Shown: positions 13,029 through 37,547 of the stretch, in pieces
Layout: each line of letters starts with the position of its first letter
Position numbering within the stretch: the first letter of the stretch is position 1
NCBI GenBank assembly: GCA_041488375.1
Contig: JBGPPD010000003.1
Coordinates: forward strand, 1 to 44,559
Length of the DNA: 44,559 nt
Direction: 5' to 3'
Source: Gammaproteobacteria bacterium
Lineage (GTDB): Bacteria > Pseudomonadota > Gammaproteobacteria > Burkholderiales > SG8-39
Notes under the pieces: generated by a model
Databases searched by the model: none
Seen by the model: the letters and a program-made list of their open reading frames with translations, nothing else
What the model was told of the DNA's origin: nothing
Made by a program: the position numbers and the translations under genes

Positions 13029-13960
13029 TCGCGCCGCCAGAGGCCGCGCGTGCGCCGGTACCAGGGGTTGGTCACGCGCTCGGCGGGATCGTAGCGCCGT
13101 TTTTCCGCGAGAAAGGCCCCGAGCATCGGGTAGCAGGCCGCAGCCTGGTCCCGGCTGGCCGCCGGCAGGCTGCCCGGCGCGACGCTGCCGCCCGCCGCCA
13201 GCGCCAGCTCGACCAGCCGCGTGCGCAATTGCGTGGCGCCGACGCAGCCGCCCAGCGTGGAGCGCGAACGGACCTCGACGCGCAGGGCGGCATATTCGCG
13301 ACGCGCCCAGCGCAGATAGGTTTCGTCCTCGGGCAGCGTCCGCCGCACCTCAAGGCGGTTCAACGCGTAGCGGTGCGCGTCGATCTCGTCGCGCATCTGG
13401 GCGATGAGCCGCTCGCTGGCTTCGGGCGGCACCAGGAGTTCGATACCGCTGCAAGCGCCCACGGCAGGCGCCTCGGGCAACTCCAGGCGCACCGGCGCCG
13501 CCGCGTCCGCGGCGGCCCGCGCCAGCGACGCGAGGTCGAGGGTCACGCTATAGAAAGGCCCGAACACGCCGAATCCGCCGACTGCCAGGCGGAACAGCTC
13601 CGGCGCGTGGTCGCGGCTGGCGCGCCGCAGCTCGCCGTCGGCCGTCACCAGGGTCAGGGAGCGCAGGTGCGCGACCACCGGCCGTCCATCTTGTCCGGAA
13701 GTGTTGCTGGCGACGCTGTCGCCGACCGTCGTGTCGCCGAAAGCGCCGCCGCCGTGGGCAGCCAGGGCGCGCCAGGGCGTGCCGGCCTGCACTTCGAGCG
13801 CGGCACGCTGCGGGTCGTGGCACAACACCCGGTCGAGTCCGGAATGGTCGAAGCGGCCTGCCGGGATCGCGCCGGCCAGCATGGCCTTGCACAAGTCGAG
13901 CGCGGAATGCACGCGCAGGCCGGGCGCTGGGGGAAGGGGAAGGCTGTGCGTCGCGAGCAT
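13025..13960 (-). CDS. FAD-binding (PCMH/FAD_binding_4-like) domain protein, short form
   Basis: ATG at 13960. TVGDSVASNTSGQDGRPVVAHLRSLTLVTADGEL...LFRLAVGGFGVFGPFYSVTLDL matches the second half of the PCMH FAD-binding fold. No N-terminal GxGxS segment is seen. The upstream part of track ORF 13025..14908 is shadow. Confidence 0.55.
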
Positions 13961-14062
13961 GGCGCTCTCCTGTTGGTCGAAAGGCGGCCCATTGTTCGCT
14001 CTGCGAATGCTGCGATGCAATACGCGGCATGCGAAGTCTCGTTTTACGATACCGCTAGTACC

Positions 14063-14800
14063 ATGCCGCGGACCCACCGCCTGGTCGAAGCGCTGAAGAA
14101 ATGCCTGCGGGCGCGCGGCATGACCTACGCCGTGCTCGCCCGCGAGCTGAGACTGTCCGAAGCGAGTGTCAAGCGCCTGTTCTCGCAGGGCCGCTTCACC
14201 CTGGCGCGCGTCGACGAGATCCTGCAGGTGCTGGAAATGGACCTGGTGGAGCTGGCGCGCATGGCGCGCGCCGGCGAGGGCGGCCCGGCCGAACTCAGCA
14301 TCGAGCAGGAGACCGTGCTGGCCCGCGACGAACGCCTGTTGTCGGTGTTCTGGCTGCTGCTGAACGGCCGGCGCTTCGAGGAGATCGTCGAGGAGTTCGC
14401 GATTACGCGCACCGAGCTGACGCTGGCGCTGGCGAAGTTCGAGCGCGCGCGGCTGATCGACTGGGACGCGGGCGAGCGTGTCCGGCTGCGGGTGGCGAAG
14501 GACTTTGTCTGGCGCGCCGGCGGGCCGGTGAAGAAGGCCTACGGCCAGCGCGTCACCGCGGAGTTCCTGCGCTCGCGCTTCGCGGGCCCGCTCGAGCTGC
14601 TGCGCTTCGAGGCGCGCGACCTGTCCGCGGCATCGGCCGCCGTGCTCAGGCGCAGGCTGGAGCGCCTGCTGGCGGATTTCGGCGAACTGGCGGCGGTGGA
14701 CTCGAGCCTGCCGGCACGCAGGCGCGAGGGCGTCGGCCTGCTGGTTGCCTGCCGGCCCTGGGCGTTCTCGGTGGTCAACGCGCTGAAGAAGCGCGCTTAG
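14063..14800 (+). CDS. Helix-turn-helix (XRE/Cro-C1-like) transcriptional regulator
   Basis: ATG at 14063. N-terminal [40 protein letters not shown] is an HTH. Divergent from the FAD-like gene. Confidence 0.75.
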
Positions 14801-15087
14801 GCGCTCGGCCAGCGTTCGAATCGCGCATAGGGCCGGTCCTGCCCGACGGCGGGCGGGCCGCACGCCACACCCTCCACGCGCGCCGCGGGCGGCCCGCGGC
14901 GCGCCCAAGCCGTCAGCGCGCCCACGTCATCCGGCTTGCCCTGCAGCACGGCTTCGACGCTGCCGTCAGCGAGATTGCGCACCCAGCCGGTCACGCCCAG
15001 GCGCACGGCCTCCTCCCGCAGGGCCTCGCGGTAGCTGACACCCTGCACTCGTCCGCGGATCAGCAGTCGAATTGTATGCAGTTGCAA
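14797..15087 (-). CDS. acyP: Acylphosphatase
   Basis: [44 protein letters not shown] is the acylphosphatase signature. The preferred start is TTG at 15087, with GGAG 5 nt upstream. An in-frame ATG at 15135 has no Shine-Dalgarno. Confidence 0.8.
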
Positions 15088-15228
15088 AACTTCTCCGAGG
15101 CGGCAATTCCGCCCGTGAAAGCACCGGGACTCCATGGTAAGCTGCTGTGCAAATTTATCCTCCCATCCTGCCGGCGAGCGCACGAAGGATCGTGCGGCGG
15201 CGCGAAGGGACAGCAAGGGGGAACACCG

Positions 15229-15624
15229 ATGCGAGCCGCACTCCTGATCATCGCTGCACTGGCGCTGGCCGGCTTCCTTGCCGTGGCGGTGGTGCTGCCA
15301 CAGATGGCCGGCAGCGAAGCGAGGGATGCCGCGCAGGCGCTGATCTCGGGCGCGGACGGCGCCAAGCAGCAGGTGGCGGCGGCAGCCGAGAAGGCCGGCA
15401 ACCTGACGGGCTCGGGCAAGGACATGAAGATTGCGGCGCGCTCCGACGCCAAGCACGGCGAACTCAAATGGATCGTCGAGGAGAACGGCGCGGTCCGCGG
15501 CTGGAACGAAAAGAACGCCATCGAGATTTCCATTTCGCCGGCCCTGCAGGGCGGGAAGGTCAGCTGGAGTTGCCGCGGCTATCCGATCACCGCCATGCCC
15601 GCGAGCTGCGGCGGCAAGTCCTGA
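15229..15624 (+). CDS. Pilin-like protein lacking a prepilin leader
   Basis: ATG at 15229 follows an AAGGGGGA Shine-Dalgarno. An N-terminal hydrophobic helix is followed by a pilin-like amphipathic segment ([37 protein letters not shown]). The C-terminus has a Cys...Cys loop ([17 protein letters not shown]). Confidence 0.6.
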
Positions 15625-15625
15625 A

Positions 15626-16141
15626 CTAGCGTTTCGCCGCCGTCACTGCGGTGACGATGGCCCGCAGGATCGCCACCGGCTCCGGTGGGCAGCCGGGCAC
15701 CGCGACATCCACCGGGATCACGTTGGCCACCCGGCCGCGGCTGGCGTAGTTCTCCCCGAAGACGCCGCCGTCGCAGCCGCAGTCGCCGACCGCCACCACT
15801 AGTTTCGGTTCCGGCACCGCCTCGTAGGTGCGCTGCAGCGCCTGCTCCATGTTGCGCGACACCGGTCCGGTGACCAGCAGCAAATCGGCATGCCGCGGGC
15901 TGGCGACGAACTTGAACCCGCGTCCCTCCAGGTTGTAGTAGGGATTGTTGAGGCCGTGGATTTCCAGCTCGCAGCCGTTGCACGAGCCGGCATCGACGTG
16001 GCGGATGGCCAGCGCACGGCCGAGCAGGCGAAGGATTTCCTCGTTGAGGCGCGGCGCGCCCCGGCGCAGGGCTTCGTCCGCGGACGGCGGCGGTTCGCTC
16101 TTCAGCCCGACCTGCGCGATCTTGATCAGGATCTTGTACAC
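15626..16141 (-). CDS. NuoB/HycG/HyfI-like small subunit of a group-4-hydrogenase-related (Ehr-type) complex
   Basis: GTG at 16141, 2 nt after the large-subunit stop. Cys motifs [17 protein letters not shown] and PGCPPEP are present, i.e. the four [4Fe-4S] (N2-type) ligand positions. Confidence 0.85.
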
Positions 16142-16143
16142 GG

Positions 16144-17703
16144 CTACAGGTCCACGCCCGCGTAGGACAGGTTGAAGGATTTGTTGATCAGCGGGAAATC
16201 GGGAACGATGTTGCCGATCACCGCGTGCTCGAGCGCCGGCCAGTTCTGCCACGACGGGTCGTGCGGGTGGCAGCGCCGCACCTGCCCGCCCGCGCCGGCA
16301 TGCAGCGCGACGATCACTTCGCCGCGCCAGCCCTCCACCCAGCCGATGCCGAAGCCGCCCGCGGCCGCCGTGCCGAGCGGGGAGCGCAATGCCCCCGCGG
16401 GCAGACCCTCGAGGAGCAGGCGCTGCAGCCGCAGCGACTCCAATGCCTCTTCGAAGCGCACCACGATGCGTGCCGCGACATCGCCATTGCGGTGCGATGC
16501 AATCGCGGGCTGCAGCTCGCCATAGGGCGCAAAGCCTGGATGCACTCGCGCGTCCATGGCATGCCCGCTCGCTCGAGCCGCGAGGCCGACCACGCCGAGC
16601 AGGGCGGCGGTGCGCGGCGTGAGCCGCCCGCAGGTGATGCAGCGGTCCTGCAGGCCCGAATGATCGTAGTAGATGGCGCGCAGGCTCCGCAGCTCGTCTG
16701 CCAGCCGCTCGCCTTCTTCGAGCAGCGCCTGCGCGGCCGGGGAATCGACGTCGCAGGCGACGCCGCCCGGCACCACGCGGTCCATCAGGTAGCGGTGGCC
16801 GAAAACCCGGGCGTTGCTGCGCAGGAAGTCCTCTTTCAGCCGCGAGAATTGCGCCAGCCCGAACGCGAGCCCGCCGTCGTTGCCCAGGGCGCCCAGGTCG
16901 CCCAGGTGGTTGGCGATGCGCTCGCGCTCCAGCAGCAGGGCCCGCAGGAACAGCGCGCGCCGGCCGGGCTCGGTGCCGGCGATGGCTTCGAGCGCCATGG
17001 CATAGGCCCAGGCGTAGGCCACGGTGCTGTCGCCGGAGACGCGTCCGGCGAGCCGCGCGCCTTCTTCCAGGCCCATGGCCTCGAAGCGCTTTTCGATGCC
17101 CTTGTGCTTGTAGCCCAGTCTCTGCTCGAGCCGCAGCACCTGCTCGCCGACGACGGAGAAGCGGAAATGGCCGGGTTCAATGGTGCCAGCGTGCACCGGC
17201 CCCACCGCTATTTCGTGCACGCCGTCGCCAGCGACCTGCACGAAGTCGTAGCGGCCACTGCCGGGCGGCAGCGCCGCGGCAAGCGGCACGTCGCGGCGCA
17301 GCGGGAACGCGTCCTCGCGCCATGCAGCGTGACGCAGCCAGCCGCGTGCGTCGGGCGCCGCATGCGCCGCCGTCACCGCGCGCACGCCGACCAGGTCGAA
17401 CGCGGCGCGCTGCATCCTGGCGGCGCAGGGATAAACGTCGGACAGGTCCGGATAGCTGGGCGCCTGCTCGGGCAGCGCGAGCTCCAGGCACACCAGCCCC
17501 TCGAAGGTGACCAGCAGCGCGCGCACGCTGAAGCCGCCGGCCGCGTCGCGCTCGTCGTTGGCCCACAGGGCCGCCAGCCTGCCGCCGGCGCGCGCCACGG
17601 CTTCGCATCCCGTGCGCCAGAGCTGCGCCTCGACGGCGGCGCGCCAGACGGGCACGGCGCCCGCTAGCGCCTGCAGCTGGATTCCGGGAAGGGGCGGCGG
17701 CAT
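16144..17703 (-). CDS. Fused NuoC-NuoD/HycE/HyfG-like large subunit without [NiFe] cysteine ligands (Ehr-type)
   Basis: VGPVHAGTIEPGHFRF and RLGYKHKGIEK are hallmarks of group-4 large subunits. Where RxCGxCxxxH is expected it reads RVSGDSTVAY. The C-terminus reads INKSFNLSYAGVDL instead of DPCxxC. Confidence 0.85.
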   Translation of the reverse strand: MPPPLPGIQLQALAGAVPVWRAAVEAQLWRTGCEAVARAGGRLAALWANDERDAAGGFSVRALLVTFEGLVCLELALPEQAPSYPDLSDVYPCAARMQRAAFDLVGVRAVTAAHAAPDARGWLRHAAWREDAFPLRRDVPLAAALPPGSGRYDFVQVAGDGVHEIAVGPVHAGTIEPGHFRFSVVGEQVLRLEQRLGYKHKGIEKRFEAMGLEEGARLAGRVSGDSTVAYAWAYAMALEAIAGTEPGRRALFLRALLLERERIANHLGDLGALGNDGGLAFGLAQFSRLKEDFLRSNARVFGHRYLMDRVVPGGVACDVDSPAAQALLEEGERLADELRSLRAIYYDHSGLQDRCITCGRLTPRTAALLGVVGLAARASGHAMDARVHPGFAPYGELQPAIASHRNGDVAARIVVRFEEALESLRLQRLLLEGLPAGALRSPLGTAAAGGFGIGWVEGWRGEVIVALHAGAGGQVRRCHPHDPSWQNWPALEHAVIGNIVPDFPLINKSFNLSYAGVDL

Positions 17704-17707
17704 GGTC

Positions 17708-19162
17708 CTAGCCGATCAGGCGCGCCGCCTGCCGGTACCAGATGGCGAGGTAGGGCGGCATGTAAAGGCCGAGCGCCAGCACCAGTGCGAGGTGGGTGAA
17801 TACCGGGACCAGGGCCGGCGGGTGCGGCAGCCTGCGGCCGGTGGAATCGCCGAACACCATCGGCTGCACCTTGCCGAAGATCGATGCGAAGGCGATGCCG
17901 AGGGACACCAGCAGGATGGGCGTTGCCCAGGGCTGCTGCGCCATGGCGGTGGTCAGGATCAGGAATTCGCTCGCGAATACCCCGAACGGCGGCATGCCGA
18001 GGATCGCGGCGGTGCCCAGCATCAGTCCCCAACCCACCGTCGGGTTGACACCCAGCAGTCCGCGGATCTCCGCCATCACCTGGGTACCCGCTTTCTGCGC
18101 CGCGTGCCCGACGGCGAAGAATATGGCGCTCTTGGTGAGCGAGTGCACGGTCATATGCAGCAGGCCGGCGAAGCTGGCGACCGGGCCGCCCATGCCGAAG
18201 GCGAAGGTGATCAGCCCCATGTGCTCGATCGACGAGTAGGCGAACATGCGCTTGATGTCGCGCTGCCGGGACAGGAAGAACGCCGCCACCACCACCGAGG
18301 CGAGGCCGAAGCCCATCAGCAGGTGGCTGGCGAACGGCCGCTCCAGCGTGCCGTCGGTGAGCACCTTGAAGCGGATCAGCGCGTACAGCGCGACGTTCAG
18401 CAGCAGCCCGGAGAGCACCGCGGACACGGGCGTCGGACCTTCCGCGTGCGCATCGGGCAGCCAGTTGTGCAGCGGCACCAGGCCCACCTTGGTGCCATAG
18501 CCGACCAGCAGGAACACGAAGGCAATCGACATCACCGTCGGCTCGAGCTGGTCCTTGACCGCGTCGAGGTGCGTCCACAGCAACGAGCCGATGCCGGCGC
18601 CGAGGACCTTCTCGGCGGCGAAGTACACCAGGATGGTGCCGAGCAGCGCCTGGGCGATGCCGACACCGCACAGGATGAAATATTTCCAGGCGGCCTCGAG
18701 CGAGGCGTGCGTGCGATACAGCGCCACCAGCAGCACGGTGGTCAGGGTGGCCGCCTCCATGGCCACCCACATGACGCCCAGGTTGTTGGTGGTGAGCACC
18801 AGCAGCATCGCCAGGCTGAACAGCTGGTACATGCTGTGGTACAGGCGCATGCCGCCCGTGGACACGCGGCCGTGGTCGCACTCGATGCGCATGTAAGGGG
18901 CGGAGAACATGGCCGTGGTCATGGCCACGAAGGCGGTCAGCGCCACCAGGAACACATTGAGCGAGTCGACGAAGAACTGCTCGCCGGCCACCTTGACCGG
19001 GCCGTCGGCGACGACGCGTGCCACCAGCGCCGCCGCGGCGACGAAGGTCAGCAGGCTGAAGCCGATGTTGGCCTCCGCGGCGCGCGGCCGGTGGCCGATC
19101 AGGGCGAGGACCATGCCGCCGGCGAGCGGCGAGGCGAGCAGCAGGAAGATTTCCGGCGCCAT
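17708..19162 (-). CDS. NuoM/N / HyfF-like antiporter-type membrane subunit
   Basis: ATG at 19162 (MAPEIFLLLASPLAGG). Multi-pass protein with the WLPDAHAEGPTPVSA motif. 1-nt TGATG overlap with the upstream gene. Confidence 0.85.
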   Translation of the reverse strand: MAPEIFLLLASPLAGGMVLALIGHRPRAAEANIGFSLLTFVAAAALVARVVADGPVKVAGEQFFVDSLNVFLVALTAFVAMTTAMFSAPYMRIECDHGRVSTGGMRLYHSMYQLFSLAMLLVLTTNNLGVMWVAMEAATLTTVLLVALYRTHASLEAAWKYFILCGVGIAQALLGTILVYFAAEKVLGAGIGSLLWTHLDAVKDQLEPTVMSIAFVFLLVGYGTKVGLVPLHNWLPDAHAEGPTPVSAVLSGLLLNVALYALIRFKVLTDGTLERPFASHLLMGFGLASVVVAAFFLSRQRDIKRMFAYSSIEHMGLITFAFGMGGPVASFAGLLHMTVHSLTKSAIFFAVGHAAQKAGTQVMAEIRGLLGVNPTVGWGLMLGTAAILGMPPFGVFASEFLILTTAMAQQPWATPILLVSLGIAFASIFGKVQPMVFGDSTGRRLPHPPALVPVFTHLALVLALGLYMPPYLAIWYRQAARLIG

Positions 19163-19824
19163 CAGCGCTCGCGCAGCTTCTCGAGGTGGCGCGTATCCAC
19201 CGAATCGAAGCGCTCGCGGATCTGGAACACGAAGATACCCAGGATCAGCGCGCCGACCAGCACGTCGAGGGCGACGCCGAACTCGATCACCATCGGCATG
19301 CCGTACACGGCGCCGGTGGCGGCGAAGAACAGGCCGTTCTCCATCGACAGGAAGCCGATCACCTGCGGCACCGCCTTGGAGCGGGTGATCATCATCAGGA
19401 AGGACAGCAGCACGCTGGCCAGGGCGATGCCGAAGGTCGAACGCGTGACCGTGCCGGCGAGCTGCGAGATCGGCAGCGCCAGGTTGAAGGCGAGGATCAC
19501 CAGCACGATGCCCACCAGCATGGTGGTCGGGATGTTGATCAGCGTCTCGACGTCCCACTTCACGTTCAGCCGCCGGATCAGCAGGTGCAGGATCCAGGGC
19601 AGGGCGATGACCTTGAGCGCGAGCGTGAGGGCGGCCGAGCCGTAGAGGTGGTGCTGGCCGGTGAGCCAGGCGACCAGGACCGTCGACAGGAACAGGACGA
19701 AGCCCTGCGCGGCGTACAGGTTGATCAGCGAGAGGATCCTGCGCTGCGCGAGCATGGCGAAGGCGAGCAGCAGCAGCACCGCCGCGAACAGGTTGACCAA
19801 CTGGGGGCCGTAGTGCTGCAGCAT
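19162..19824 (-). CDS. HyfE-like small membrane subunit
   Basis: 220-aa polytopic protein in the HyfE position between the NuoH-like and antiporter-like genes. The call rests on position and general resemblance. Confidence 0.8.
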   Translation of the reverse strand: MLQHYGPQLVNLFAAVLLLLAFAMLAQRRILSLINLYAAQGFVLFLSTVLVAWLTGQHHLYGSAALTLALKVIALPWILHLLIRRLNVKWDVETLINIPTTMLVGIVLVILAFNLALPISQLAGTVTRSTFGIALASVLLSFLMMITRSKAVPQVIGFLSMENGLFFAATGAVYGMPMVIEFGVALDVLVGALILGIFVFQIRERFDSVDTRHLEKLRER

Positions 19825-19825
19825 C

Positions 19826-20776
19826 TCAGCCTTCCAGCAGGACGTGCAGCAGCATCGCCAGCACCGCCAGCAGGAACGCGGTGGCGAGGAACTCGGGGGC
19901 GCGGAAGATCCGCATCTTCGCGCTGAGCGTTTCGATCAGGGCGAGCAGGAACCCGCCGACCGCGAGCTTGAGGCCCAGTGCCGGCAGCGCGAGCAGCAGC
20001 CCGAGCCAGTCGCCGCGCTCGGCGACGCCGAACGGGAAGAACAGCGCGAGCCCGATGCACGAATAGACGAACAGCTTGAGGCTCGCCGCCCATTCGATCA
20101 GCGCCAGGTGCCGGCCCGAGTACTCGAGCACCATCGCCTCGTGGATCATCGTCAGCTCCAGGTGCGTCGCGGGGTTGTCCACGGGTATGCGCGCGTTCTC
20201 GGCGAGCGACACCATGGTGAAGGCCACCCCCGCGAACGCCATGCTGGGGTAGATCACGAACTCCCGGTGCGCCAGCACGTCGACGATGGTGGCGAGCGAG
20301 GTGGAGCCGGAAATCAGCGAGGCGGTGAACAGCACCATCAGCAGCGCAGGCTCCGCCAGGAAGCCCACCAGCATCTCGCGCCGCGCGCCCAGGGAGCCGA
20401 ATGCGGTGCCCACATCCATGCCGGCGAGCGCGACGAACAGGCGCGCCAGCGCCAGCAGCCCGACCAGGGCGATGGCATCCGCCGCGGCGTTGAGCGGCAG
20501 GTCGGTGCCAATCTTGGGCACGATCGCGGAGGCGAGCGCGAGGCAACCGAAGATCACGTAGGGCGCGGCACGGAACAGCGGGCTCGCATTGTGCGCCAGC
20601 ACCACTTCCTTGCTGAACTGCTTGCCCAGCACGCGGTAGGGCTGCAGCAATCCCGGGCCGCTGCGGTTCTGCAGCCAGGCGCGGCATTGGTTCACCCAAC
20701 CGGTGAGCATCGGCGCGAGCAGCACGGCGAGCGCCAGCACGGCGAACTGGGCGACGAGCCCCGGGATGCTGCTCAT
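19826..20776 (-). CDS. NuoH / HycD / HyfC-like membrane subunit
   Basis: The N-terminal RAWLQNRSGPGLLQPY motif is typical of NuoH/HycD-type subunits. 316 aa, polytopic. Confidence 0.88.
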   Translation of the reverse strand: MSSIPGLVAQFAVLALAVLLAPMLTGWVNQCRAWLQNRSGPGLLQPYRVLGKQFSKEVVLAHNASPLFRAAPYVIFGCLALASAIVPKIGTDLPLNAAADAIALVGLLALARLFVALAGMDVGTAFGSLGARREMLVGFLAEPALLMVLFTASLISGSTSLATIVDVLAHREFVIYPSMAFAGVAFTMVSLAENARIPVDNPATHLELTMIHEAMVLEYSGRHLALIEWAASLKLFVYSCIGLALFFPFGVAERGDWLGLLLALPALGLKLAVGGFLLALIETLSAKMRIFRAPEFLATAFLLAVLAMLLHVLLEG

Positions 20777-20783
20777 GGCGCGC

Positions 20784-22781
20784 TCATCCGACGAACAGCA
20801 GCAGCGCCAGCAAAGTGGCGAAGCTGTAGGTCAGATAGACCGAAATCCTGCCGCGCTGCAGCAGGGTGACCAGCGAGGTTGCATAGTTGGCGGCGCGCGC
20901 CACCGGCAGGTAGAGCCAGTACCAAAGGCGATCCTCATGCGTCTCGTGGTAGGACGGCCGCGCGTCGAGCGGCGCCGGGGCGTGCTGTTCGATGCGGAAG
21001 AACGGCTCGAACACGTGGCGCACCGGCTGGCCGAAGCCCTCGGCGCTGTCCTGCATGCGCGCGTCCTGGTACGGGAAGCCGCAATCCCAGGGCGCGGCGC
21101 GGCGCATGCGGCCATGGTAGAAGGCGCGCACCGTGAGCCAGGTGAGGGTCACCAGCAGCGCCGTGACCGCGAAGAACAACAGCGGGCTGTAGCTCGCGCG
21201 CTCGGGCTGCAGCGGGGCGAGGAACAGCCAGCCCTGCGTCAGGCTGGCCATGCCGAATCCGGTGAGTTCCCGCGTGACCGGGTCGAGCAGCCCGATCACC
21301 GTCGCCGGCACGAGCCCGAGCACGATGCACCCGGCAGCGAGCCAGGCGAGGCCGGTCCGCTGCCAGGTGTCGGCGTCGTGCGCCGCGGCCAGCCCCTCCT
21401 CGCGCGGCTGGCCGAGGAACACCACGCCGTAAAACTTGACCATCACGTAGCCCGACAGCGCCGCCGTGAGTGCGACCACGGCGGCGGCGACCGGCACCAG
21501 CATGTTGAGGTAGGCCTGCGGCAGCCCGGGCGTGAATAGGAAGGCCTGCAGCAGCAGCCATTCCGACACGAAGCCGTTGAGCGGCGGCAGGCCGGCGATG
21601 GCGATGCTGCCGATGAGCGCGCACCAGGCGACCCAGGGCATGCGGTGGATCAGGCCGCCGAGCTTGCCCAGGTTGCGCTCGCCGGTCGCGTGCAGCACCG
21701 AACCCGCGCACAGGAACAGCAGCGACTTGAAAAACGCGTGGTTGAGGCAGTGGTACAGCGTCGCTGTCAGCGCGAGCGCCGCCAGCGTGCCCATGCCGAA
21801 GCCGTGGAAGATCAGCGTCAGGCCGAAACCGGCGAAGATCAGGCCGATGTTCTCGATCGACGAATAGGCGAGCAGCCGCTTGATGTCGGTCTGCACCGCG
21901 GCGAAGACCACGCCGCCCAGCGCGGACACCAGGCCGAGGGCGAGGGCGATGGTGCCCCACCACCATACCGGCTGGCCGACCAGGTCGAGCGCGACGCGCA
22001 GCACGCCGTAGACCGCGGTCTTCAGCATCACCGCGCTCAGCAGCGCCGAGACCGGCGAGGGCGCCGCCGGGTGCGCCTCGGGCAGCCAGACGTGCAGCGG
22101 CACGATGCCTGCTTTGGCGCCGAAGCCGAGCAAAGCCAGCAGGAACGCGGCAGTGGCGTAGCCGGCACTGGGTTGGACCGCGCGCATGTGGTCGAACGTG
22201 TAGTCGCCGCCGCCCGCCTGCAACGCGCCGAAGCACAGCAGGATCGAAAGCGCGCCGATGTGCGCGATCAGCAGGTAGAGGTAGCCTGCGCGCCGGATCT
22301 CGGCGTGCTGGTGGTCGCTGGTGATGAGGAAAAACGAGGCGAGCGCCATGGTTTCCCACGCCACCATGAAGAAATAGGCGTCGTTGGCGACCAGCACCAG
22401 CAGCATGCTGGCGAGGAACACGTGGTAGTACAGGCACAGCAGCCCCGGCGCCGTGCGCTCGCCCGCGCGCAGGTAGCCACAGGCGAAGATCGACACGCCC
22501 GCCGCCACCGCGCTGAGCAGCAGCAGGAAGAACGACGACAGCGCGTCGATGCGCGCATGGAACGGCAGGTCCGGCAGGCCGAGCGGCAACACCAGCGAGC
22601 GCGGCGCGGAGAACACGCCCTGCAGGGCGAACGCGGCCAGCGCAAGCCCCACCAGCGCGCCCGCCGGGAACAGCACACGGCTGCTCAACGCGAGGCTCTG
22701 CGGCCTGAGGAGCCCTGCCGCGCCGATCGCGAGCCAGGCGGCGCCTGCCGCCAGCGTCGCCTGCAGGGGGGCAGCCTCCAC
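20784..22781 (-). CDS. NuoL / HyfB-like antiporter-type membrane subunit
   Basis: GTG at 22781 overlaps the kinase TAG by 1 nt; an alternative in-frame GTG lies at 22790. About 665 aa with WLPEAHPAAPSPVSALLSAVMLK. The upstream part of track ORF 20784..23180 is antisense to the kinase. Confidence 0.85.
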   Translation of the reverse strand: MEAAPLQATLAAGAAWLAIGAAGLLRPQSLALSSRVLFPAGALVGLALAAFALQGVFSAPRSLVLPLGLPDLPFHARIDALSSFFLLLLSAVAAGVSIFACGYLRAGERTAPGLLCLYYHVFLASMLLVLVANDAYFFMVAWETMALASFFLITSDHQHAEIRRAGYLYLLIAHIGALSILLCFGALQAGGGDYTFDHMRAVQPSAGYATAAFLLALLGFGAKAGIVPLHVWLPEAHPAAPSPVSALLSAVMLKTAVYGVLRVALDLVGQPVWWWGTIALALGLVSALGGVVFAAVQTDIKRLLAYSSIENIGLIFAGFGLTLIFHGFGMGTLAALALTATLYHCLNHAFFKSLLFLCAGSVLHATGERNLGKLGGLIHRMPWVAWCALIGSIAIAGLPPLNGFVSEWLLLQAFLFTPGLPQAYLNMLVPVAAAVVALTAALSGYVMVKFYGVVFLGQPREEGLAAAHDADTWQRTGLAWLAAGCIVLGLVPATVIGLLDPVTRELTGFGMASLTQGWLFLAPLQPERASYSPLLFFAVTALLVTLTWLTVRAFYHGRMRRAAPWDCGFPYQDARMQDSAEGFGQPVRHVFEPFFRIEQHAPAPLDARPSYHETHEDRLWYWLYLPVARAANYATSLVTLLQRGRISVYLTYSFATLLALLLFVG

Positions 22782-23995
22782 TACGCCCACACGATGAGGG
22801 CCGCCACGATCAGTCCGGCGATGGCGCACGCCGCCACGAAGGCGGTGTCGCGCCGGTTCCAGCCGCCGCCCGCCATCACCGTGGTCTGCAGCGTGAGGGG
22901 CATGGTGCTGGCCGAGGGGTCGACGGTCTTGCCGGCATCGCTGAGTGCCGCCAGGCGCTGCGTCGCCTCCAGCGAATCGAAGGTGCGCGACACGCCGCGC
23001 GCCGGCGCCGCATCCGGCGCAGCGGCGTCCTCCTCCGCGCGGCGCGAGCGCTCGACGCTCTGCGCCAGCACCGCGGTCTTGACTTCGGGATCCACGACCG
23101 CAGGCGTCGGGCCCGGCGCCAGGGTCGCCAGCGGCAGCGTCGTGGTGGAGCTCGGCGCGACGTACACCTGGTGCTCGCATTCACGCAGGCCGCGCGCGAT
23201 TTCGGCGGCGCTCTGGAAGCGTTCGTCCAACGCCTTGGCCAGCATGCGCCCGACGATCAGGTCGAGCGCGCCGGGGGCCGCCGGGTTGATGGCGCTGGGC
23301 GCCGGCGGCACGAAGTTCACGATCTGGTACATCACCGCGTTCACGCTCTCGCCCGTGAAGGGCGCGGCGCCGGTCAGCATTTCGTACAGGATCACGCCGA
23401 GGGAAAAGATGTCGCAGCGGTGGTCGGCGCGCTTGCCGATCACCTGCTCGGGCGACATGTATTTGGGCGAGCCCATCATCATGCCGGTCTGCGTCTGCAC
23501 GTTGGACGTGCGCATGCGCGCGATGCCGAAGTCGGTGATCTTCACCGGCCCGCTGTCGGGCACCATGATGTTCGCCGGTTTGATGTCGCGGTGCACCACG
23601 CCGCGTTCGTGCGCGTAGGCCAGGCCTTCGGCCACCTGCGCGGCGATCGACAGCGCGCGCTGCACCGTCAGCGGCTTGCCCGGCAGCAGCAGCGTACGCA
23701 GCTCCGGGCCCTCGATGTACTCCATGGCCATGTAGCAGACGTTCTCGGTCTTGCCGATGTCGTAGATCGTGACGATGTTGGGGTGGTTCAGCCCGCCGGC
23801 GGCGCGCGCCTCCTGGTAGAAGCGCTTCTCGTACATCTCGGCGCCGTCCTTGTCCATCCCCATATTGATGGTCTTGATGGCGACGGTGCGCTCGAGCATC
23901 GGGTCCTTCGCCTTGTAGACGATGCCCATCGCCCCGCGACCGATCTCCGCCACCAGTTCGAAGCGGCCGAGTTTTTGTTCTTCCATGGTCGGCAA
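22781..23995 (-). CDS. Hanks-type Ser/Thr protein kinase, C-terminally tail-anchored
   Basis: GRGAMGIVYKA...VAIK, HRDIKPANIM, DFGIAR and SPKYMSPEQ motifs. One C-terminal TM helix (FVAACAIAGLIVAALIVWA) lies at the very end. The start is TTG 23995 or ATG 23986; neither has a clear Shine-Dalgarno. Confidence 0.9.
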   Translation of the reverse strand: MPTMEEQKLGRFELVAEIGRGAMGIVYKAKDPMLERTVAIKTINMGMDKDGAEMYEKRFYQEARAAGGLNHPNIVTIYDIGKTENVCYMAMEYIEGPELRTLLLPGKPLTVQRALSIAAQVAEGLAYAHERGVVHRDIKPANIMVPDSGPVKITDFGIARMRTSNVQTQTGMMMGSPKYMSPEQVIGKRADHRCDIFSLGVILYEMLTGAAPFTGESVNAVMYQIVNFVPPAPSAINPAAPGALDLIVGRMLAKALDERFQSAAEIARGLRECEHQVYVAPSSTTTLPLATLAPGPTPAVVDPEVKTAVLAQSVERSRRAEEDAAAPDAAPARGVSRTFDSLEATQRLAALSDAGKTVDPSASTMPLTLQTTVMAGGGWNRRDTAFVAACAIAGLIVAALIVWA

Positions 23996-24006
23996 ACCGG
24001 CGCGCT

Positions 24007-24405
24007 TTAGCGGCCGGCCTTGACCGAGCGGAACACCGGTCCCCAGATCGGGTGGCCGGCCTCGGCCGGAGGCAGGTCGAACTCGGGCTCGATCGCCAGC
24101 GCCTTGCGGAATTCATCGCGGCAGGGGGAAGTGCGCCCGGAAACGCAGTGGATGAACGCCAGGGTCTTGTGGGCGTTCACCCGGTCGGTCCGGGCCAGCC
24201 CCTGGTCGATCGCCGACTGCAGCTGCTTGGCCGCCTCGGCGTAGTTGCCCTCCTCGTACTGCCGCAGGCCCGCGGCCATCGCCGGTTCACCCTTGCTGCG
24301 GCCGAACAGGCTCTTGAAATCCGTTTGCATGTCGCGGATCGGCTCGGACTGGCAGCCGGCGAGCAGCAGCGCGCCGGTCACCGCCACGAATACCGCATGC
24401 CTCAT
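24007..24405 (-). CDS. Lipoprotein with a TPR-like helical repeat
   Basis: ATG at 24405 follows an AGGGGGAA Shine-Dalgarno. Lipobox LLAGC. YEEGNYAEAAKQLQSAI...FRKALAIEP is TPR-like. Confidence 0.7.
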   Translation of the reverse strand: MRHAVFVAVTGALLLAGCQSEPIRDMQTDFKSLFGRSKGEPAMAAGLRQYEEGNYAEAAKQLQSAIDQGLARTDRVNAHKTLAFIHCVSGRTSPCRDEFRKALAIEPEFDLPPAEAGHPIWGPVFRSVKAGR

Positions 24406-24470
24406 GCCTGGTTCCCCCTGAACTGCATTGTGCAGTGCTAGGCGGTGGAAGATACCACCGCAGAGGCGGG

Positions 24471-25676
24471 TCAGCGAAACCGGTGCCGCAAGCGCACCGG
24501 CTCGCCGGAGCGCACTTCGACTCGCTGGGTGTAGGTGGGAAAGGCGGTATTGCGGACTTCGACGGTGTGCGCTCCGGGAGGCAATTCGAGCGAGCGCAGC
24601 GGCGGACTGACGCCGCGGCTGCGGCCATCCACGAACACTTCGCCCCACGGCAGGATGGCGAGCTGGATCACGCCCGCGGCGACCACCGGGGCCGGGGCGG
24701 GCGCGCTCTCCGGTTTGGCCGCCGCCACCGCCTGGACGCGAGGCGCCTTGGCGGCGGGTTTTTTCTTCGGCGCCGGCGCGGGTGCCGCTTTCGGCGGCGC
24801 GGCCGCCGGCTCGGGCTTGGCGGCGGCGAGCACTTCGGCCTTGGGCGCCGGCACGGGCTCGACCTTTGCCGCGGCCACGGGCTTGTCGAGGACCGGCGCT
24901 GGCTTCGCGACCGCCCTCGCCGCGGCGCCGGGGACTGCCGCGGGCTGCAGCGGCGGGCGCATCTGGGCGCGCACGGCGACGCCGCCGCCCACCAGCAGCG
25001 CGAACGCCAGCGGCGCACCGAGCAGCGCCATGCGGTGCAGGCCGAAGGGGCGCGCGTCGGTGAGTTCGCCGATGAAGCGCGGCGCGGCGCCGCGCGGGGC
25101 CACGCGCAGCGAGCCGGTCTCGAGCACGCGGCGGGCGGCGTCGGTGCCGATGCCGACCGAGTACACCTCGTGCTCGCGCACATGCTTGTCGGTACGCGCG
25201 CCGACGTAGCTGAACAGGCTGGCGTAGTCCAGCGACAGGCAGGACACCACCTCGTAGAAGGAGCGCGACACCAGCAGCTGGCCCGACTGCGCGAAACTCA
25301 TCACGCGCTGCGCGACGTTGATGCCGTCGCCGATGATGTTCATCTGGCCGTTGATGTCCTTCACCACGCGCACCGGGCCCAGGTTGATGCCGATGCGGAT
25401 GGCGATCGCGCCGGTGGCCTCGGCGCGCGCCGCGGCGCGCAGCGACATGGCCACGAACAGCGCGTCTTCAGGGTCGCCGAGGAAGGTGATGGCCGCCCCG
25501 TCGCCGGTATCCAGCACCACCCGGTCGCGCGCGTGCACGTTCTCCAGGGCAGAGCTGAGCAGCTTGTTGAACGCCTGTTTGAGCAGCAACTGCTCCGCCA
25601 CGGGCTTCGTCGAGTACTCGACGATGTCCAGGAACACGATGCTGCAAACCAGCGTGCGGCTTGGCTGTTCGATCAT
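24471..25676 (-). CDS. Class III adenylate/guanylate cyclase-homology domain, one TM, Pro/Ala/Lys linker, C-terminal PEGA domain
   Basis: VFLDIVEYS, DTGDGAAITF and IIGDGINVAQRV match the metal Asp, Asn and Arg positions. The TM is ALLGAPLAFALLVGGGVAV. The PEGA-like C-terminus is ILPWGEVFVDGRSRG...LPPGAHTVEV. Confidence 0.8.
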   Translation of the reverse strand: MIEQPSRTLVCSIVFLDIVEYSTKPVAEQLLLKQAFNKLLSSALENVHARDRVVLDTGDGAAITFLGDPEDALFVAMSLRAAARAEATGAIAIRIGINLGPVRVVKDINGQMNIIGDGINVAQRVMSFAQSGQLLVSRSFYEVVSCLSLDYASLFSYVGARTDKHVREHEVYSVGIGTDAARRVLETGSLRVAPRGAAPRFIGELTDARPFGLHRMALLGAPLAFALLVGGGVAVRAQMRPPLQPAAVPGAAARAVAKPAPVLDKPVAAAKVEPVPAPKAEVLAAAKPEPAAAPPKAAPAPAPKKKPAAKAPRVQAVAAAKPESAPAPAPVVAAGVIQLAILPWGEVFVDGRSRGVSPPLRSLELPPGAHTVEVRNTAFPTYTQRVEVRSGEPVRLRHRFR

Positions 25677-25714
25677 GCGTCGCGCCAGAGGCGGCGCGGG
25701 CGCCGCGGGGAGGG

Positions 25715-27793
25715 CTATTTTACGCGCATGCCCGGTTTTGCCCCCGCGTCGGGCGAAATGAGGAATATTCCCGGCTCCTCGCCAGAGGCGGCGAGGACCA
25801 TGCCTTCGGAAACTCCGAATTTCATCGTGCGCGGCGCCAGATTGGCGACCAGCACCGCGAGTTTGCCCTCCAGCCGGGCCGGGTCATAGGCCGACTTGAT
25901 GCCGGCGAACACGGTGCGCGTGCTGCCGCCGAGCTCGAGGGTGAGTTTGAGGAGTTTGTCGGCGCCTTCCACGTGCTCGGCCCTGACGATCTGCGCCACG
26001 CGCAAGTCGAGTTTATTGAAGTCGTCGATGGTGATGGCGTCGGACACGGACTTCTCCTTGGCGGCGTGCAGCTGCTGCTCGGCGTGGCGCTGCGGGGCGG
26101 TGGCTTGCGGCACGGAGGCGACGTCGAACAGGGCGTCGAGCTGCCTTGCCTCGACGCGCGACAAAAGATGGCTGTAGGGCGCGATCGCGTGGTCCTCGCC
26201 CAGGAATTTTTCCAGGTCATGCCAGGCGTAGGGTTTGACGCCCAGCAACTGCGCCGACAGTTGCGCCGTCCGCGGCAGCACCGGCGCCAGCAGGATCGCG
26301 AGGAACCGGAACGCCTCGATGGCCTCGGAGCAGACGCTGTGCAGCCGTGCGTCGTGGCCGGACTGCTTGGCCAGTTCCCAGGGCTTCTCGGCGTCCACGA
26401 ACCGGTTGACTTCGTCGGCAAGCTCCATGATGCGCCGCACCGCCTTGCCGAACTCGCGCGCCTCATAGGCCGCCGCGATCTCCGGCGCGGCGTGCCGCAC
26501 CGTCGAGGCGATGTCTGCGCCGGCCTGCTTCTTCAGCGCGACCCCCTTCAGCTTTCCGCCGAAGCGCTTGCTGATGAACGGGACGCAGCGGCTGGCGATG
26601 TTCACGAACTTGCCGACCAGATCGCTGTTGACGCGCGCCAGGAAGTCGTCGGGATTGAAATCCAGGTCCTCCACGTTGGCGTTCAGCTTGGCCGCGATGT
26701 AATAACGCAGCCACTCCGGGTTCATGCCGAGCTCGAGGTAGCGCAACGGGCTGATGCCGGTGCCGCGCGATTTGGACATCTTGTCCCCGGACACGGTGAT
26801 GAAGCCGTGCACGTAGACGTGGTCGGGCACCTTGTAGGGCTTGCCGGCGTATTCGAGCATCGCCGGCCAGAACAGGGTGTGGAAGTAGATGATGTCCTTG
26901 CCGATGAAGTGGACCTGCTCGGTGCCCGGGTCTTGCAGGAATTTCTCGAAGTCGATACCGGCCTTGGCGCAGTAGTTCTTGAAGCTGGCCAGGTAGCCGA
27001 TCGGCGCATCGAGCCAGACGTAGAGGTACTTCTCCTCCGCGATGTCGGGCACGCGGATGCCGAAGTAGGGCGGGTCGCGCGAGATGTCCCAGTCGCCCAG
27101 CGCCTTGTCGCCCTCGCCGTCCAGCCATTCCTTCGCCTTGTTCACGACCTGCGGCTGCAGGCGCCCGGGCTTTTCCAGCCAGCCCTTGAGAAAGGTCCGG
27201 CATTTCGGATCGGACAGGCGGAAGAAGTGATGCTCGGAGGTCTTCAGCACGGGCTTGGCGCCCGACAACGTCGAGTAGGGGTTCTTCAGGTCGGTCGCCG
27301 AGTAGGCGGCGCTGCAGTTCTCGCAGGCATCGCCGTACTGGTCCTTTGCGCCGCAGTTCGGGCACTCGCCCTTGATGTAGCGGTCCGCCAGGAACATGCT
27401 CTTCACCGGGTCGTAGAACTGCTCGACCGGCTTGGTGTAGACGAGCCCCGCTTTCTTCAGGCGCCGGTAGATGTCCTGCGACAACCCGGTGTTTTCCGGC
27501 GAATGCGTCGAGTGCCAGTTGTCAAAGGCGATGTGGAAGCCGTCGAGGTACTGCCGGCGCCCCCGCGCGATCTCGGCGACGAAGGCCTCGGGCGCCTTGC
27601 CGGCTTTCTCCGCGGCGAGCATGATCGGCGCGCCGTGCGCGTCGTCGGCGCCGACGAAATGCACCACGTGGCCTTGCATGCGCTGGAATCGCACCCAGAT
27701 GTCGGCCTGGATGTACTCCATGATGTGGCCGATGTGGAACGCGCCGTTGGCGTAGGGCAGCGCGGTGGTGACGAACAGCCTGCGTTGCGGCAT
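25715..27793 (-). CDS. metG: Methionine--tRNA ligase
   Basis: [13 protein letters not shown] (HIGH) and KMSKSRG (KMSKS) motifs, with a C-terminal tRNA-binding domain. 692 aa. Confidence 0.97.
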
Positions 27794-27836
27794 TGCTGAC
27801 CCGAGGAAAACGCGGATTTTAGCTTACACTTGCGCC

Positions 27837-28922
27837 ATGTCCCTGAGTGATCCCGACGTCCGCTCGCTGCTCTCAAAACTGATCGACCCGAACACCGGCA
27901 AGGACTACGTCAGCACGCGCTCGGTGAAGAGCCTCAAGCTGGCCGGGGCCGACGTGCAGCTGGAGATCGAACTGGGGTATCCGGGCAAGAGCCAGTTCGA
28001 GCCGATCCGCCGCGAGATCACCTCGGCGCTGAAGAAGGCGGGCGCCGGCAACGTCGCGGTGAGCGTCGCCTCCAAGGTGGTGGCGCATTCGGTGCAGCGT
28101 GGCGTGAAGCTGGTGCCGGGCATCAAGAACATCATCGCGGTGGCCTCCGGCAAGGGCGGCGTGGGCAAGAGCACCACCGCGGTGAACCTCGCGCTGGCGC
28201 TCTCCGCCGAGGGCGCCTCGGTCGGCATCCTCGACGCGGATATCTACGGCCCGTCGCAGCCGATGATGCTCGGCATCGCCGGGCGGCCCGAGTCGAAGGA
28301 CGGCAAGGGGCTCGAGCCGATGATGGGGCACGGCTTGCAGGCGATCTCGATCGGTTTCCTCATCGACATGGACACGCCGATGGTCTGGCGCGGCCCGATG
28401 GTCACACAGGCGCTCGAGCAGCTGCTGAAGGACACGCGCTGGCGCGAGCTCGACTACCTGGTGGTGGACCTGCCGCCGGGCACCGGCGATATCCAGCTCA
28501 CCCTGGCGCAGAAAGTGCCGGTGACCGGCGCCGTGATCGTCACCACGCCGCAGGACATTGCGCTGATCGACGCGCGCAAGGGCCTCAAGATGTTCGAGAA
28601 GGTGGGCATTCCGATTCTGGGCGTGGTGGAGAACATGTCGATCCACGTCTGTCCCAAGTGCGGCCACGAGAGCCACATCTTCGGCAGCGGCGGCGCCGCG
28701 CGCATGAGCAAGGACTACGGCACCGAGCTGCTCGGCCAGCTGCCGCTGGACGAATCGATCCGCGAGCAGGCCGATTCCGGCAAGCCGACCGTGGTGGCGG
28801 ACCCCGACGGCAAGGCGGCGGAGATTTACCGGCGCATCGCGCGCCGCTGCGCCGTGAAGATCGCCGAGTCGCAGAAGGACATGACGGGGAAATTCCCCAA
28901 CATCGTGGTGCAGAACACGTGA
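27837..28922 (+). CDS. apbC: Iron-sulfur cluster carrier ATPase (Mrp/ApbC)
   Basis: ATG at 27837. [21 protein letters not shown] deviant Walker A and CPKCGH motif. Confidence 0.93.
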
Positions 28923-35464: not shown

Positions 35465-36275
35465 ATACCGCGATCGGCGCCTTGATGGCCGGGTGCGGGT
35501 CGTAGCCCTCCAGCGTGAAATCCTCGTAACGGAAGGCGAAGACGTCCTCCACCTGCGGATTGAGCCGCATGCGCGGGAAGGCGCGCGTGGCGCGAGCGAT
35601 CTGCTCGCGCGCCTGCTCGAGATGGTTCAGGTAAAGGTGCGCGTCGCCGAGCGTGAGGACGAACTCGCCCGGAGCGAACCCGGTGACCTGGGCCATCATC
35701 AGCGTGAGCAGCGCGTAGGAGGCGATGTTGAACGGCACGCCGAGGAACAGGTCCGCGCTCCTCTGGTACATCTGGCAGGAAAGCCGTCCCTCGGCCACGT
35801 AGAACTGGAACAGGGCGTGGCACGGCGGGAGTGCCATCTTGTCCACGTCCGCCGGGTTCCAGGCGGTCACCAGGTGGCGCCGGGAATCCGGCCGCGCCCG
35901 GATCTGCTCCACCACCAGGCGCAGCTGGTCGATTTCGCGCCCATCGGGCGCGCGCCAGTGGCGCCATTGGTAGCCGTACACCGGACCGAGCTCGCCCTCG
36001 CTGTCGGCCCACTCGTCCCAGATGCTGACGCCGTGCTCCTGCAGCCAGCGCACGTTGGTGTCGCCGCGCAGGAACCACAGCAATTCGTAGATGATGGATT
36101 TGAGGTGCAGCTTCTTGGTGGTGAGCAGCGGGAAGCTATCGGCGAGCGCGAAGCGCATCTGCCGACCGAACACCGAGCGCGTGCCGGTCCCGGTGCGGTC
36201 GGACTTGAGCGCGCCGTGCGCCAGCACTTCGGCCAGCAGGTCGAGGTACTGTCGTTCGCCGGGATTCTGGCTCAT
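35463..36275 (-). CDS. thyA: Thymidylate synthase
   Basis: [12 protein letters not shown]...[12 protein letters not shown] is the ThyA signature. The ATG overlaps the upstream stop (ATGA). Confidence 0.96.
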
Positions 36276-37522
36276 ATCGCGATCATCGCGAACAGCTCGC
36301 GCGCGTTCTGGAACCGCTCGTCGGGATTCTTGGCCAGCAACCGGTCGAGGATGCCCTGGTACCCGGCAAGGCGCCCCTCGAGGCGCGGCAGCGGCCCGTG
36401 CACGTGCTGGTACACCAGCCCGGCGGGGCCCTCAGCGTCGTACAGTTTCTTGCCGCTGAGCATCTCGTAGAAGATGACGCCCAGGCTGTACAGGTCGGAG
36501 CGATGGTCGGCCGGTTTGCCGAGGCACTGCTCCGGGCTCATGTAGCGGGGCGTCGCGATCACTTCGCCGTGGCGCGTGAGGGTGGTCTTGGCCGCCATGT
36601 TCTTGGCCAGGCCGAAATCCACGATCACCGGGCGCCCATTGTCGCGGAACAGGATGTTCTGCGGCTTGAGGTCGCGGTGGATGATGCCATGGGTGTGGAT
36701 CGCGTCGAGCGCGCGCGCGATCTGCGAGGTAATGCGCAGCGCCGCGAGCGAGGTCAGGCCGCTCTGCATGCGGGCGGCCAGCGTGCCACCCTCCAGGTAT
36801 TCCATGGCGATGTACGGGCGCTCGCCGGCAAAGCCCTGGTCGTAGATGTGCGCAACGTACTCGTTGTTGAGGCCGGCGACCAGGCGGTATTCCTGCACGA
36901 AGCGCCGGCGGAAGGTCCCGTCCTCGCGCAGATTCGGATCGAGCACCTTCAACACCAGTTGCAGGCCATCCTTCTCGCGCTCCGCCAGGTAGACCTGGGC
37001 CATGCCGCCTTCGCCGATCTTGCGCAGACTGCGGTAGCCGGGGATCGGCCGGTCGTCGGTCTTGACCGGCACGCCGATCTTGCGCACGTCCAGCGGCTGG
37101 GTGCGCAGGGAGGAAGGCGGTGTGCCCGAGATTTCCGCACGGTGCGCTTGGTCCTCGCGCAACGCGTCCTCCACCGAGCGCGCCAGCCGTTGCGCGTCGA
37201 GCCCGACCTTGCGCAGGAAATCCGCCGCGCCGGCCTTCATCGCCTTTACCGCGAGGCTCTCGCCCCCCGCCCCGGTCAGCAGCACCACCGGCGGCGCCTC
37301 CGGGTCGCGCCGGATGTCGGTCACCCAGGCAAGCCCGTCTTCGCCGGCCGGCTCGGTGTCGAGCAGGACCGCGTTGTAGCGCCCGTGCTCCAGCGCCGAG
37401 CGCGGATTGCCGCGCTCGCGCGGATCCCACTCTTCAATATCCGCGTCCGGCCAGCGGGCACGCAGCATGCCGGCGACCGCGCCGCGGATCTCGCGGGATT
37501 CGTCCACGATGAGGAATCGCAT
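36272..37522 (-). CDS. Receiver (REC) domain fused to a Hanks-type Ser/Thr kinase
   Basis: ATG at 37522 gives MRFLIVDES...AVLLDTEP...VVLLTGAG...AADFLRK, so the REC Asp, Thr and Lys are present. Kinase motifs: [41 protein letters not shown]. An alternative ATG at 37549 would overlap the divergent gene start. Confidence 0.85.
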
Positions 37523-37547
37523 AGGGCCTGCGTGGTAGGATTTTCGC

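Follow-up and report, generated by a model that had tools for sequence, protein, structure and literature searches.

A cyclase-PEGA/lipoprotein/kinase trio and an Ehr-type complex, probably separate modules, in a metG-linked slot of a Burkholderiales genome

Organization and transcription signals of the gene string

We analysed a 44.6-kb stretch (70% G+C) of a Burkholderiales genome (contig JBGPPD010000003.1, positions 1 to 44,559; hereafter the window), which carries a string of nine genes at 15626-25676, all on the minus strand. The first three genes, hereafter the trio, encode a cyclase-homology protein with a PEGA domain (gene cyc), a small lipoprotein and a Hanks-type Ser/Thr kinase. The last six, here called hyfB, C, E, F, G and I after their closest relatives, encode an Ehr-type membrane complex. 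An original prediction made from the nucleotide sequence had described this string, and had proposed that the complex is controlled by the kinase and the cyclase. Translation of the open reading frames (ORFs) bore out the nine genes and reproduced every junction that had been listed. The gaps between cyc and the lipoprotein gene and between the lipoprotein and kinase genes are 65 nt and 11 nt, respectively. The kinase stop codon overlaps the GTG start codon of hyfB by 1 nt (TAGTG), and the five junctions within the hyf genes are, in order, 7, 1, -1 (TGATG), 4 and 2 nt. The layout was the same in gene calls made independently on six contigs of this species, each sampled separately, among them contigs from GCA_041476835.1, GCA_041497915.1, JGI 3300052990 and JGI 3300053057. 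These calls begin the kinase at the ATG at 23986, giving a protein of 401 aa and a gap of 20 nt to the lipoprotein gene, and they also have hyfB overlapping the kinase stop.

The gene for methionyl-tRNA synthetase, metG (25715-27793, minus strand; tRNA-synt_1g and tRNA_bind domains), lies 38 nt upstream of cyc. Upstream of metG we found a sigma-70-like promoter match on the minus strand (27816-27843; 9/12 hexamer matches). A consensus scan of 15000-28500 returned this one promoter-like site with 0.8 expected, which makes it weak on its own, and no promoter-like site inside the nine-gene string. In the same interval, four terminator-like sites were found, all in coding sequence, and shuffled sequences gave an expectation of 6.4. 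The claim that no hairpin with a T-run and no promoter interrupts the string thus stood, since nothing beyond chance was detected, with the correction that small hairpins lacking T-runs are present in the cyc-lipoprotein gap and across the lipoprotein stop codon. An internal promoter and terminator between the kinase and hyfB, named beforehand as grounds for rejecting a joint unit, were both looked for in the scan, and neither was found. A stable hairpin on the minus strand at 23976-24026 (-23.1 kcal/mol, versus -14.6 ± 2.8 in shuffles) spans the lipoprotein stop, is followed by UUUG and lies immediately ahead of the kinase start, where it could tune translation of the kinase or cause partial transcription attenuation.

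The metG-trio-ehr series has the sequence features expected of an operon, with one strand, short or overlapping junctions and no internal terminator or promoter. Because metG is 38 nt upstream on the same strand and behind the sole promoter-like site, the string and metG probably form a 10-gene transcription unit with metG as its first gene. Co-transcription of the trio with the ehr genes in this organism, likely from the metG promoter, is thus probable as judged from these sequence features; it is made plausible by the overlap of the kinase stop with the hyfB start and by the lack of terminator and promoter signals there.

The signalling trio

The cyclase-PEGA protein (401 aa; 24471-25676, minus strand) consists of a cyclase-homology domain, one transmembrane helix, a Pro/Ala/Lys-rich linker and a PEGA domain (Pfam Guanylate_cyc, 30.6 bits; PEGA, 25 bits). 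The cyclase-homology domain could be aligned over its full length with PDB 3mr7. Both Asp residues that bind metal are present, as are the Asn and Arg of the transition state, and all four are conserved across 89 homologues. However, Leu stands in place of the canonical substrate Lys (vKTtGDG of 3mr7 aligns to vLDTGDG), and LDTGDG is kept in homologues, so that neither Lys nor Glu was found in this alignment at the substrate-specifying position before the second metal Asp. The protein therefore shares with class III cyclases (PDB 3mr7, 5oyh, Ma1120) the domain fold, the metal Asp pair and the transition-state Asn/Arg, and differs from them in the adenine-selecting residue, in its weak Pfam score and in its membrane-PEGA architecture, which has not been described for them.

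The second gene (24007-24405, minus strand) encodes a 132-aa lipoprotein with the lipobox LLLAGC and a tetratricopeptide repeat (Pfam TPR_2), and belongs to the TssQ family (NCBIfam NF038027, 107.7 bits with a cut-off of 65). It should be noted that similar names are in use for other proteins. TssQ of Bacteroidota was rejected as the matched family, since it is no lipoprotein but has a transmembrane helix and, in the periplasm, an elongated helical domain. The name tssQ_1 has been used in a paper for an Hcp protein of Proteus.

The third gene (22781-23995, minus strand; the alternative start is given above) encodes a Hanks-type Ser/Thr kinase (Pfam Pkinase, 190 bits) with VAIK, HRD, DFG and SPE motifs, as read directly from its translation. 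It is tail-anchored by a hydrophobic helix formed by the final ~20 residues, which ends the protein and leaves no extracytoplasmic part. The NCBIfam scan also gave a match to TIGR03903 (TOMM kinase/cyclase); kinase and cyclase domains occur fused in other systems. The anatomy first proposed for the trio, namely a cyclase-PEGA protein with one transmembrane helix, a TPR lipoprotein and a sensor-less tail-anchored kinase, agrees with these Pfam and NCBIfam assignments. Together the three proteins would form a trans-envelope sensor, in which the PEGA domain and the lipoprotein would supply the periplasmic input that the kinase itself lacks. The cytoplasmic output would be Ser/Thr phosphorylation by the tail-anchored kinase and possibly a cyclic nucleotide from the cyclase domain.

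Relatives were searched in one genome per GTDB species. The cyclase-PEGA query gave 213 relatives, of which the best 80 were kept (L081-L160). The HyfG-like query gave at least 585, of which the best 80 were likewise kept (L001-L080), almost all of them from betaproteobacterial metagenome-assembled genomes (MAGs). Ten window proteins were mapped onto all loci by tblastn. The kinase gene lies downstream of cyc in 69 of the 80 cyc-seeded loci, in the order cyc, lipoprotein (one or two copies), kinase, and at least seven of the other 11 are on truncated contigs. These trio loci are found in Burkholderiales, Gallionellaceae, Sideroxydans and Usitatibacter. No kinase homologue was found within 10 kb in L155 (Noviherbaspirillum massiliense JC206, NZ_HE978634.1) and L158, which have cyc-PEGA and two lipoprotein genes. 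The kinase is therefore not an obligatory member of the cassette, and the cyc-PEGA/lipoprotein pair may be its core. Many lipoprotein homologues are 210-230 aa long, versus 132 aa here, and many trio loci have two consecutive lipoprotein genes (e.g., among L113, L116, L126 and L143), which points to repeated duplication or fusion of a small TPR lipoprotein unit. In the literature, we found no paper combining a PEGA domain, a kinase and a cyclase. The cassette is widespread, yet we found no described counterpart of the trio.

The family of the lipoprotein raises the question of whether the trio is a relic or remote part of the threonine-phosphorylation pathway of type VI secretion systems (T6SS), regulating a T6SS, or a different envelope machine, whose genes lie elsewhere, with its own position beside the ehr genes irrelevant. 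The TssQ-family model that the lipoprotein passes is a T6SS-associated one. For a PLSDB record with a lipoprotein homologue, the neighbouring genes were annotated by NCBIfam; in Burkholderia arboris, the homologue (40% identity) is flanked by TssJ and by the FHA protein TagH within a TssM/L/K/J cluster, and a kinase homologue is encoded close by. Because it sits beside TagH in a T6SS cluster, the lipoprotein family is associated elsewhere with trans-envelope Ser/Thr-phosphorylation signalling. The trio resembles the T6SS pathway (PpkA, Fha/TagH and lipoprotein partners) in pairing a TssQ-family lipoprotein with a membrane Hanks kinase. However, it differs in having a kinase without a periplasmic domain and a cyclase-homology/PEGA partner, and in lacking FHA, phosphatase and T6SS core genes. 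No T6SS, FHA or PP2C gene was found in the window, and none recurs beside the trio in the 80 loci. To our knowledge, no described T6SS pathway includes a cyclase-PEGA partner. We therefore regard a T6SS role of the trio as unlikely.

A second alternative is that the kinase acts on its own against phages, as a Ser/Thr kinase of the PD-T4-6 type, and that the trio is a defence island inserted beside the ehr genes. The kinase reaches up to 357 bits against the PADLOC PD-T4-6 models. However, these matches cover the generic Hanks catalytic domain alone, and PADLOC gave no match for the cyclase-PEGA protein or the lipoprotein. Furthermore, the core-genome backbone around the trio is stable, and the trio shows vertical conservation across families, whereas defence islands typically have a patchy distribution associated with mobile elements. 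A defence function is thus highly improbable.

Two further signalling genes in the window lie apart from the trio, both on the minus strand: one for a second Ser/Thr kinase, with a response-regulator receiver domain fused to it (36272-37720), and one for a second, stand-alone cyclase-homology protein (43123-43815). The genome is rich in kinase/cyclase signalling genes.

The Ehr complex

The six genes downstream of the trio encode two antiporter-like subunits, one NuoH-like, one HyfE-like, one NuoD-like large and one NuoB-like small subunit, which is the six-subunit composition of Ehr complexes. From the kinase onwards, they are the HyfB-like antiporter-type subunit EhrA (20784-22781; NF005086, 884 bits), the HyfC/NuoH-like subunit EhrB (19826-20776; Pfam NADHdh, 132 bits), the HyfE-like membrane subunit EhrC (19162-19824; NF008556, 83 bits, below the cut-off of 136), the HyfF-like antiporter-type subunit EhrD (17708-19162; NF005045, 857 bits), the HyfG-like NuoC-NuoD fusion EhrL (16144-17703; Pfam Complex1_30kDa and 49kDa) and the HyfI/NuoB-like small subunit EhrS (15626-16141; Pfam Oxidored_q6). 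The four [4Fe-4S] cysteines of EhrS, read directly from the translation, are kept. By contrast, an alignment of EhrL with E. coli HycE (PDB 7z0s_E, E 2.5e-54) showed that CGIC is changed to SGDS and DPCYSC to NLSYAG, so that the four cysteines are S, S, S and G and the NiFe-binding CxxC motif pair of group 4 hydrogenases is missing. The sequence DPSWQNW had been a candidate for the C-terminal NiFe motif of EhrL and was rejected, since the HycE alignment places the true position at the C-terminal NLSYAG. Because all four NiFe cysteines of the large subunit are replaced, the complex cannot be a hydrogenase. No gene for a 2x[4Fe-4S] ferredoxin-like subunit (HyfH/HycF/NuoI) and no maturation (hyp) gene was found in the cluster, where junctions are at most 7 nt, or elsewhere in the window. 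Pfam, NCBIfam and the HycE alignment thus agree with the earlier reading of these genes as HyfB/C/E/F/G/I-like with a cysteine-less large subunit.

By homology, the six genes are an ehrABCDLS-type complex, a member of a known, functionally unsolved family. Such complexes are known, for example, from Geobacter sulfurreducens (GSU0739-45) and Methylacidiphilum (PMC6349859, PMC7894505, PMC6688271), and their role has been stated to be uninvestigated (PMC7894505). The cluster shares with published ones the order of genes for the NuoL-, NuoH-, HyfE- and NuoM/N-like, large and small subunits (PMC6688271, PMC7894505), a large subunit without Ni/Fe cysteines, and the absence of a NuoI/HycF-type ferredoxin subunit and of hyp genes nearby. 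It differs from them in its NuoC-NuoD fusion, as in HycE/HyfG, and in its metG-linked slot in betaproteobacterial MAGs. Compared with E. coli hydrogenase-4 (hyfABCDEFGHIJR) and formate hydrogenlyase, five of the six subunits have their best matches there (HyfB, HyfE, HyfF, HycE and the HycG/NuoB-like small subunit), whereas the NiFe cysteines are replaced and equivalents of HyfA, D, H, J and R are missing. No formate dehydrogenase or other donor module adjoins the ehr genes, and the window holds no formate-dehydrogenase genes. Homology with complex I and membrane-bound hydrogenases, including PDB matches, suggests that electrons would enter via the [4Fe-4S] cluster of EhrS and pass to an acceptor at the EhrL/EhrS/EhrB interface, and that this redox reaction would drive ion translocation through the antiporter-like EhrA and EhrD. 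In two relatives, a paralogous second hyfBCEFGI-like cluster with 42-60% identity lies beside the first (L052:12264-19164 and L061:16467-21525). An Ehr cluster is also present in Sulfuricella sp. T08.

Linkage of the trio and the ehr genes in relatives

Among 48 hyfG-seeded loci that were informative for the position directly upstream of hyfB, the trio occupies it on the same strand in nine, metG in seven and another gene in 32. Seen from the other side, the kinase in 57 informative trio-seeded loci adjoins hyfB in three, metG followed by hyfB in four, a convergent hyfI in two and unrelated genes in 48. At least three assemblies that carry both modules have them on different contigs (JBDTRK01, JACRPU01 and JAHJBC01). 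In total, trio-to-Ehr linkage was found in ~13 related MAG loci. The order trio-hyf is limited to one Burkholderiales MAG clade, where it is interspersed with metG-hyf loci in a neighbour-joining tree of HyfG. In 29 of the 80 Ehr loci, metG is no more than 10 kb away from the ehr genes, and neither module has any other recurrent neighbour in the 80 loci per query. Linkage of the two modules across relatives was not found to exceed background synteny. The proposal that the Ehr complex is controlled by the kinase and cyclase thus fails the neighbourhood survey, in which 48 of the 57 trio loci are unlinked to ehr genes and 39 of the 48 Ehr loci lack the trio directly upstream.

Nucleotide alignment of the window with close relatives showed where the two modules begin and end. 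L082, L083 and L084 (78-80% nucleotide identity) are syntenic on both sides and have metG followed by the trio; the 7.15-kb Ehr block (15626-22781) is absent at gene boundaries, and the kinase stop is followed within 1-30 nt by the stop of the small convergent gene that in the window comes after hyfI. Conversely, L001 (81% nucleotide identity), which has the closest HyfG relative (79% amino acid identity), has metG followed by hyfB, with the trio absent at gene boundaries. There the ATG of hyfB overlaps the metG stop (ATGA; L001:4860-4990, MERE01000167.1), and the Ehr cluster appears translationally coupled to methionyl-tRNA synthetase. Because this metG-hyfB junction has the same stop/start overlap as the kinase-hyfB junction of the window, such tight junctions reflect gene packing and not a specific partnership. 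Absence of the linkage in a related genome had been named in advance as refuting the proposed link, and such absence was found in both directions.

The nearest relative of the metG/cyc region, L091 (JAQBXT010000059.1), has 96% amino acid identity over cyc residues 1-178 and lacks the rest of the trio, the ehr genes and three further genes. Relative to window positions 13282-25142, its sequence passes directly from within the cyclase gene into that of the FAD oxidase; its read coverage is very low, and the gap may be a chimera or assembly artefact. Near relatives therefore include genomes with both modules, with the ehr genes only, with the trio only and, possibly, with neither (L091). Since all combinations occur, each module is dispensable without the other.

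In L083 (12925-12955), a 22-nt spacer stands in place of the Ehr block. It starts with TAGTG and ends with GCGGCGGCGC, and these ends resemble the hyfB start (22779-22783) and the hyfI 3' end (15626-15640) of the window; the sequence is GC-rich, and the resemblance may be due to chance. The spacer may be a deletion scar, in which case the ehr genes were lost rather than never gained.

The kinase-hyfB spacer is itself variable within the trio-hyf clade. L003 has a spacer of -2 nt and six loci have one of 24-42 nt. In three further loci it measures 132-138 nt, with an AT-rich stretch in two of them (L008 and L009), and in L071, L089 and L090 it reaches 228-264 nt. In these last three, the spacer holds an antisense ORF of the ribbon-helix-helix (CopG-like) type (L090:10585-10830, L071:4681-4935, L089:11375-11640) and, just before hyfB, an AT-rich palindromic region (ATTGCAAT...TGATAATATGATTGCAAT). 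The ORF and palindrome are possibly a dedicated repressor and operator for the ehr genes. In these three genomes, the ehr genes must have their own promoter.

A shared chromosomal slot

All arrangement classes have a common backbone. On one side apbC is divergent from metG, and on the other lie a small convergent gene, genes for an acylphosphatase, a helix-turn-helix protein and an FAD oxidase, and dnaE. Between or around these genes, the trio and the ehr genes are arranged as metG-trio-Ehr, metG-Ehr, metG-trio, apbC-trio-metG-Ehr, and Ehr convergent with trio-metG. Because the backbone genes are conserved in every class, the adjacency of the trio and the ehr genes follows from their sharing one slot. 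The Nitrosomonadales keep the order apbC-metG-Ehr-acylphosphatase and have the trio elsewhere (L045 versus L131), which suggests that the ehr genes are the older residents and that the trio joined the slot in a Burkholderiales sublineage.

In the window, the downstream edge of the slot is formed by the small convergent gene (15229-15624, plus strand), which has coding-like G+C content at third codon positions (GC3) and ends 1 nt from the hyfI stop. It encodes a signal-anchored protein of 131 aa with C-terminal cysteines and no Pfam family. The rest of the window is housekeeping in character, with dnaE, purM-like, pcnB, apbC, dcd-like and decarboxylase genes, an NtrB/NtrC-type pair, thyA, pmbA and a dsbA-like gene. 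An ORF at 37539-39050 (plus strand; 503 aa) likewise has coding-like GC3 and no Pfam family.

Two modules or one regulated complex

The chief alternative is that the trio is a dedicated sensor-regulator of the co-transcribed Ehr complex, using phosphorylation or a cyclic nucleotide to control how active the complex is or how it is assembled. The layout of the window is in its favour, with one strand, the overlapping kinase stop and hyfB start and the missing terminator and promoter signals between the trio and the ehr genes, as are the order shared by the ~13 related loci and the closeness of the modules in three permutations. However, either module is missing at gene boundaries in close syntenic relatives (L082-L084; L001), most loci of each module are unlinked in the counts given above, and in some lineages the two modules are convergent or have metG or an antisense gene between them. 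In addition, the metG-hyfB overlap of L001 equals the kinase-hyfB overlap, and the trio-Ehr cluster contains no gene for an FHA, phosphatase or cyclic-nucleotide-binding partner. We consider dedicated control improbable. Equally doubtful is a narrower form of it, in which the trio was captured into a metG-Ehr unit in one Burkholderiales MAG clade and there tunes the complex post-translationally, through a cyclic nucleotide or Ser/Thr phosphorylation, in response to periplasmic or envelope cues. If it were true, the proximity of the modules through three rearrangements would reflect selection and not inertia of synteny, and the trio would be the first regulator of an Ehr complex and a first physiological handle on it.

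It is instead likely that the trio and the ehr genes are two autonomous, separately inherited modules, which occupy adjacent positions in one conserved slot of the core genome and are co-transcribed here through gene packing. Both would be read through from the metG promoter, and their co-transcription would be a local by-product and not a conserved regulatory design. Several points weigh against this interpretation. Across HyfG identities down to ~55-60%, the distance between the modules does not exceed 10 kb in any of three permutations (metG-trio-hyf, trio-metG-hyf, and hyf convergent with trio-metG), and such persistent proximity could reflect weak selection. The overlap of the kinase stop with the hyfB start, in the window and in L003, allows translational coupling. 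Furthermore, each locus set comprises the 80 best matches to its query and is no unbiased census, and the functions of both modules are putative ones, assigned by homology.

Implications

Ehr complexes are widespread relatives of complex I, and a regulator dedicated to one of them would have been the first hint of the conditions and purpose of their activity. With the comparative data, that hint is lost. The conserved, uncharacterised cassette of a cyclase-PEGA protein, a TssQ-like lipoprotein and a tail-anchored kinase, found across Betaproteobacteria without a T6SS context, is a lead for a separate study. As to the Ehr complex, its recurrent linkage with metG, which sometimes appears to extend to translational coupling, suggests that its expression may be near-constitutive and growth-linked, rather than governed by a dedicated signal.

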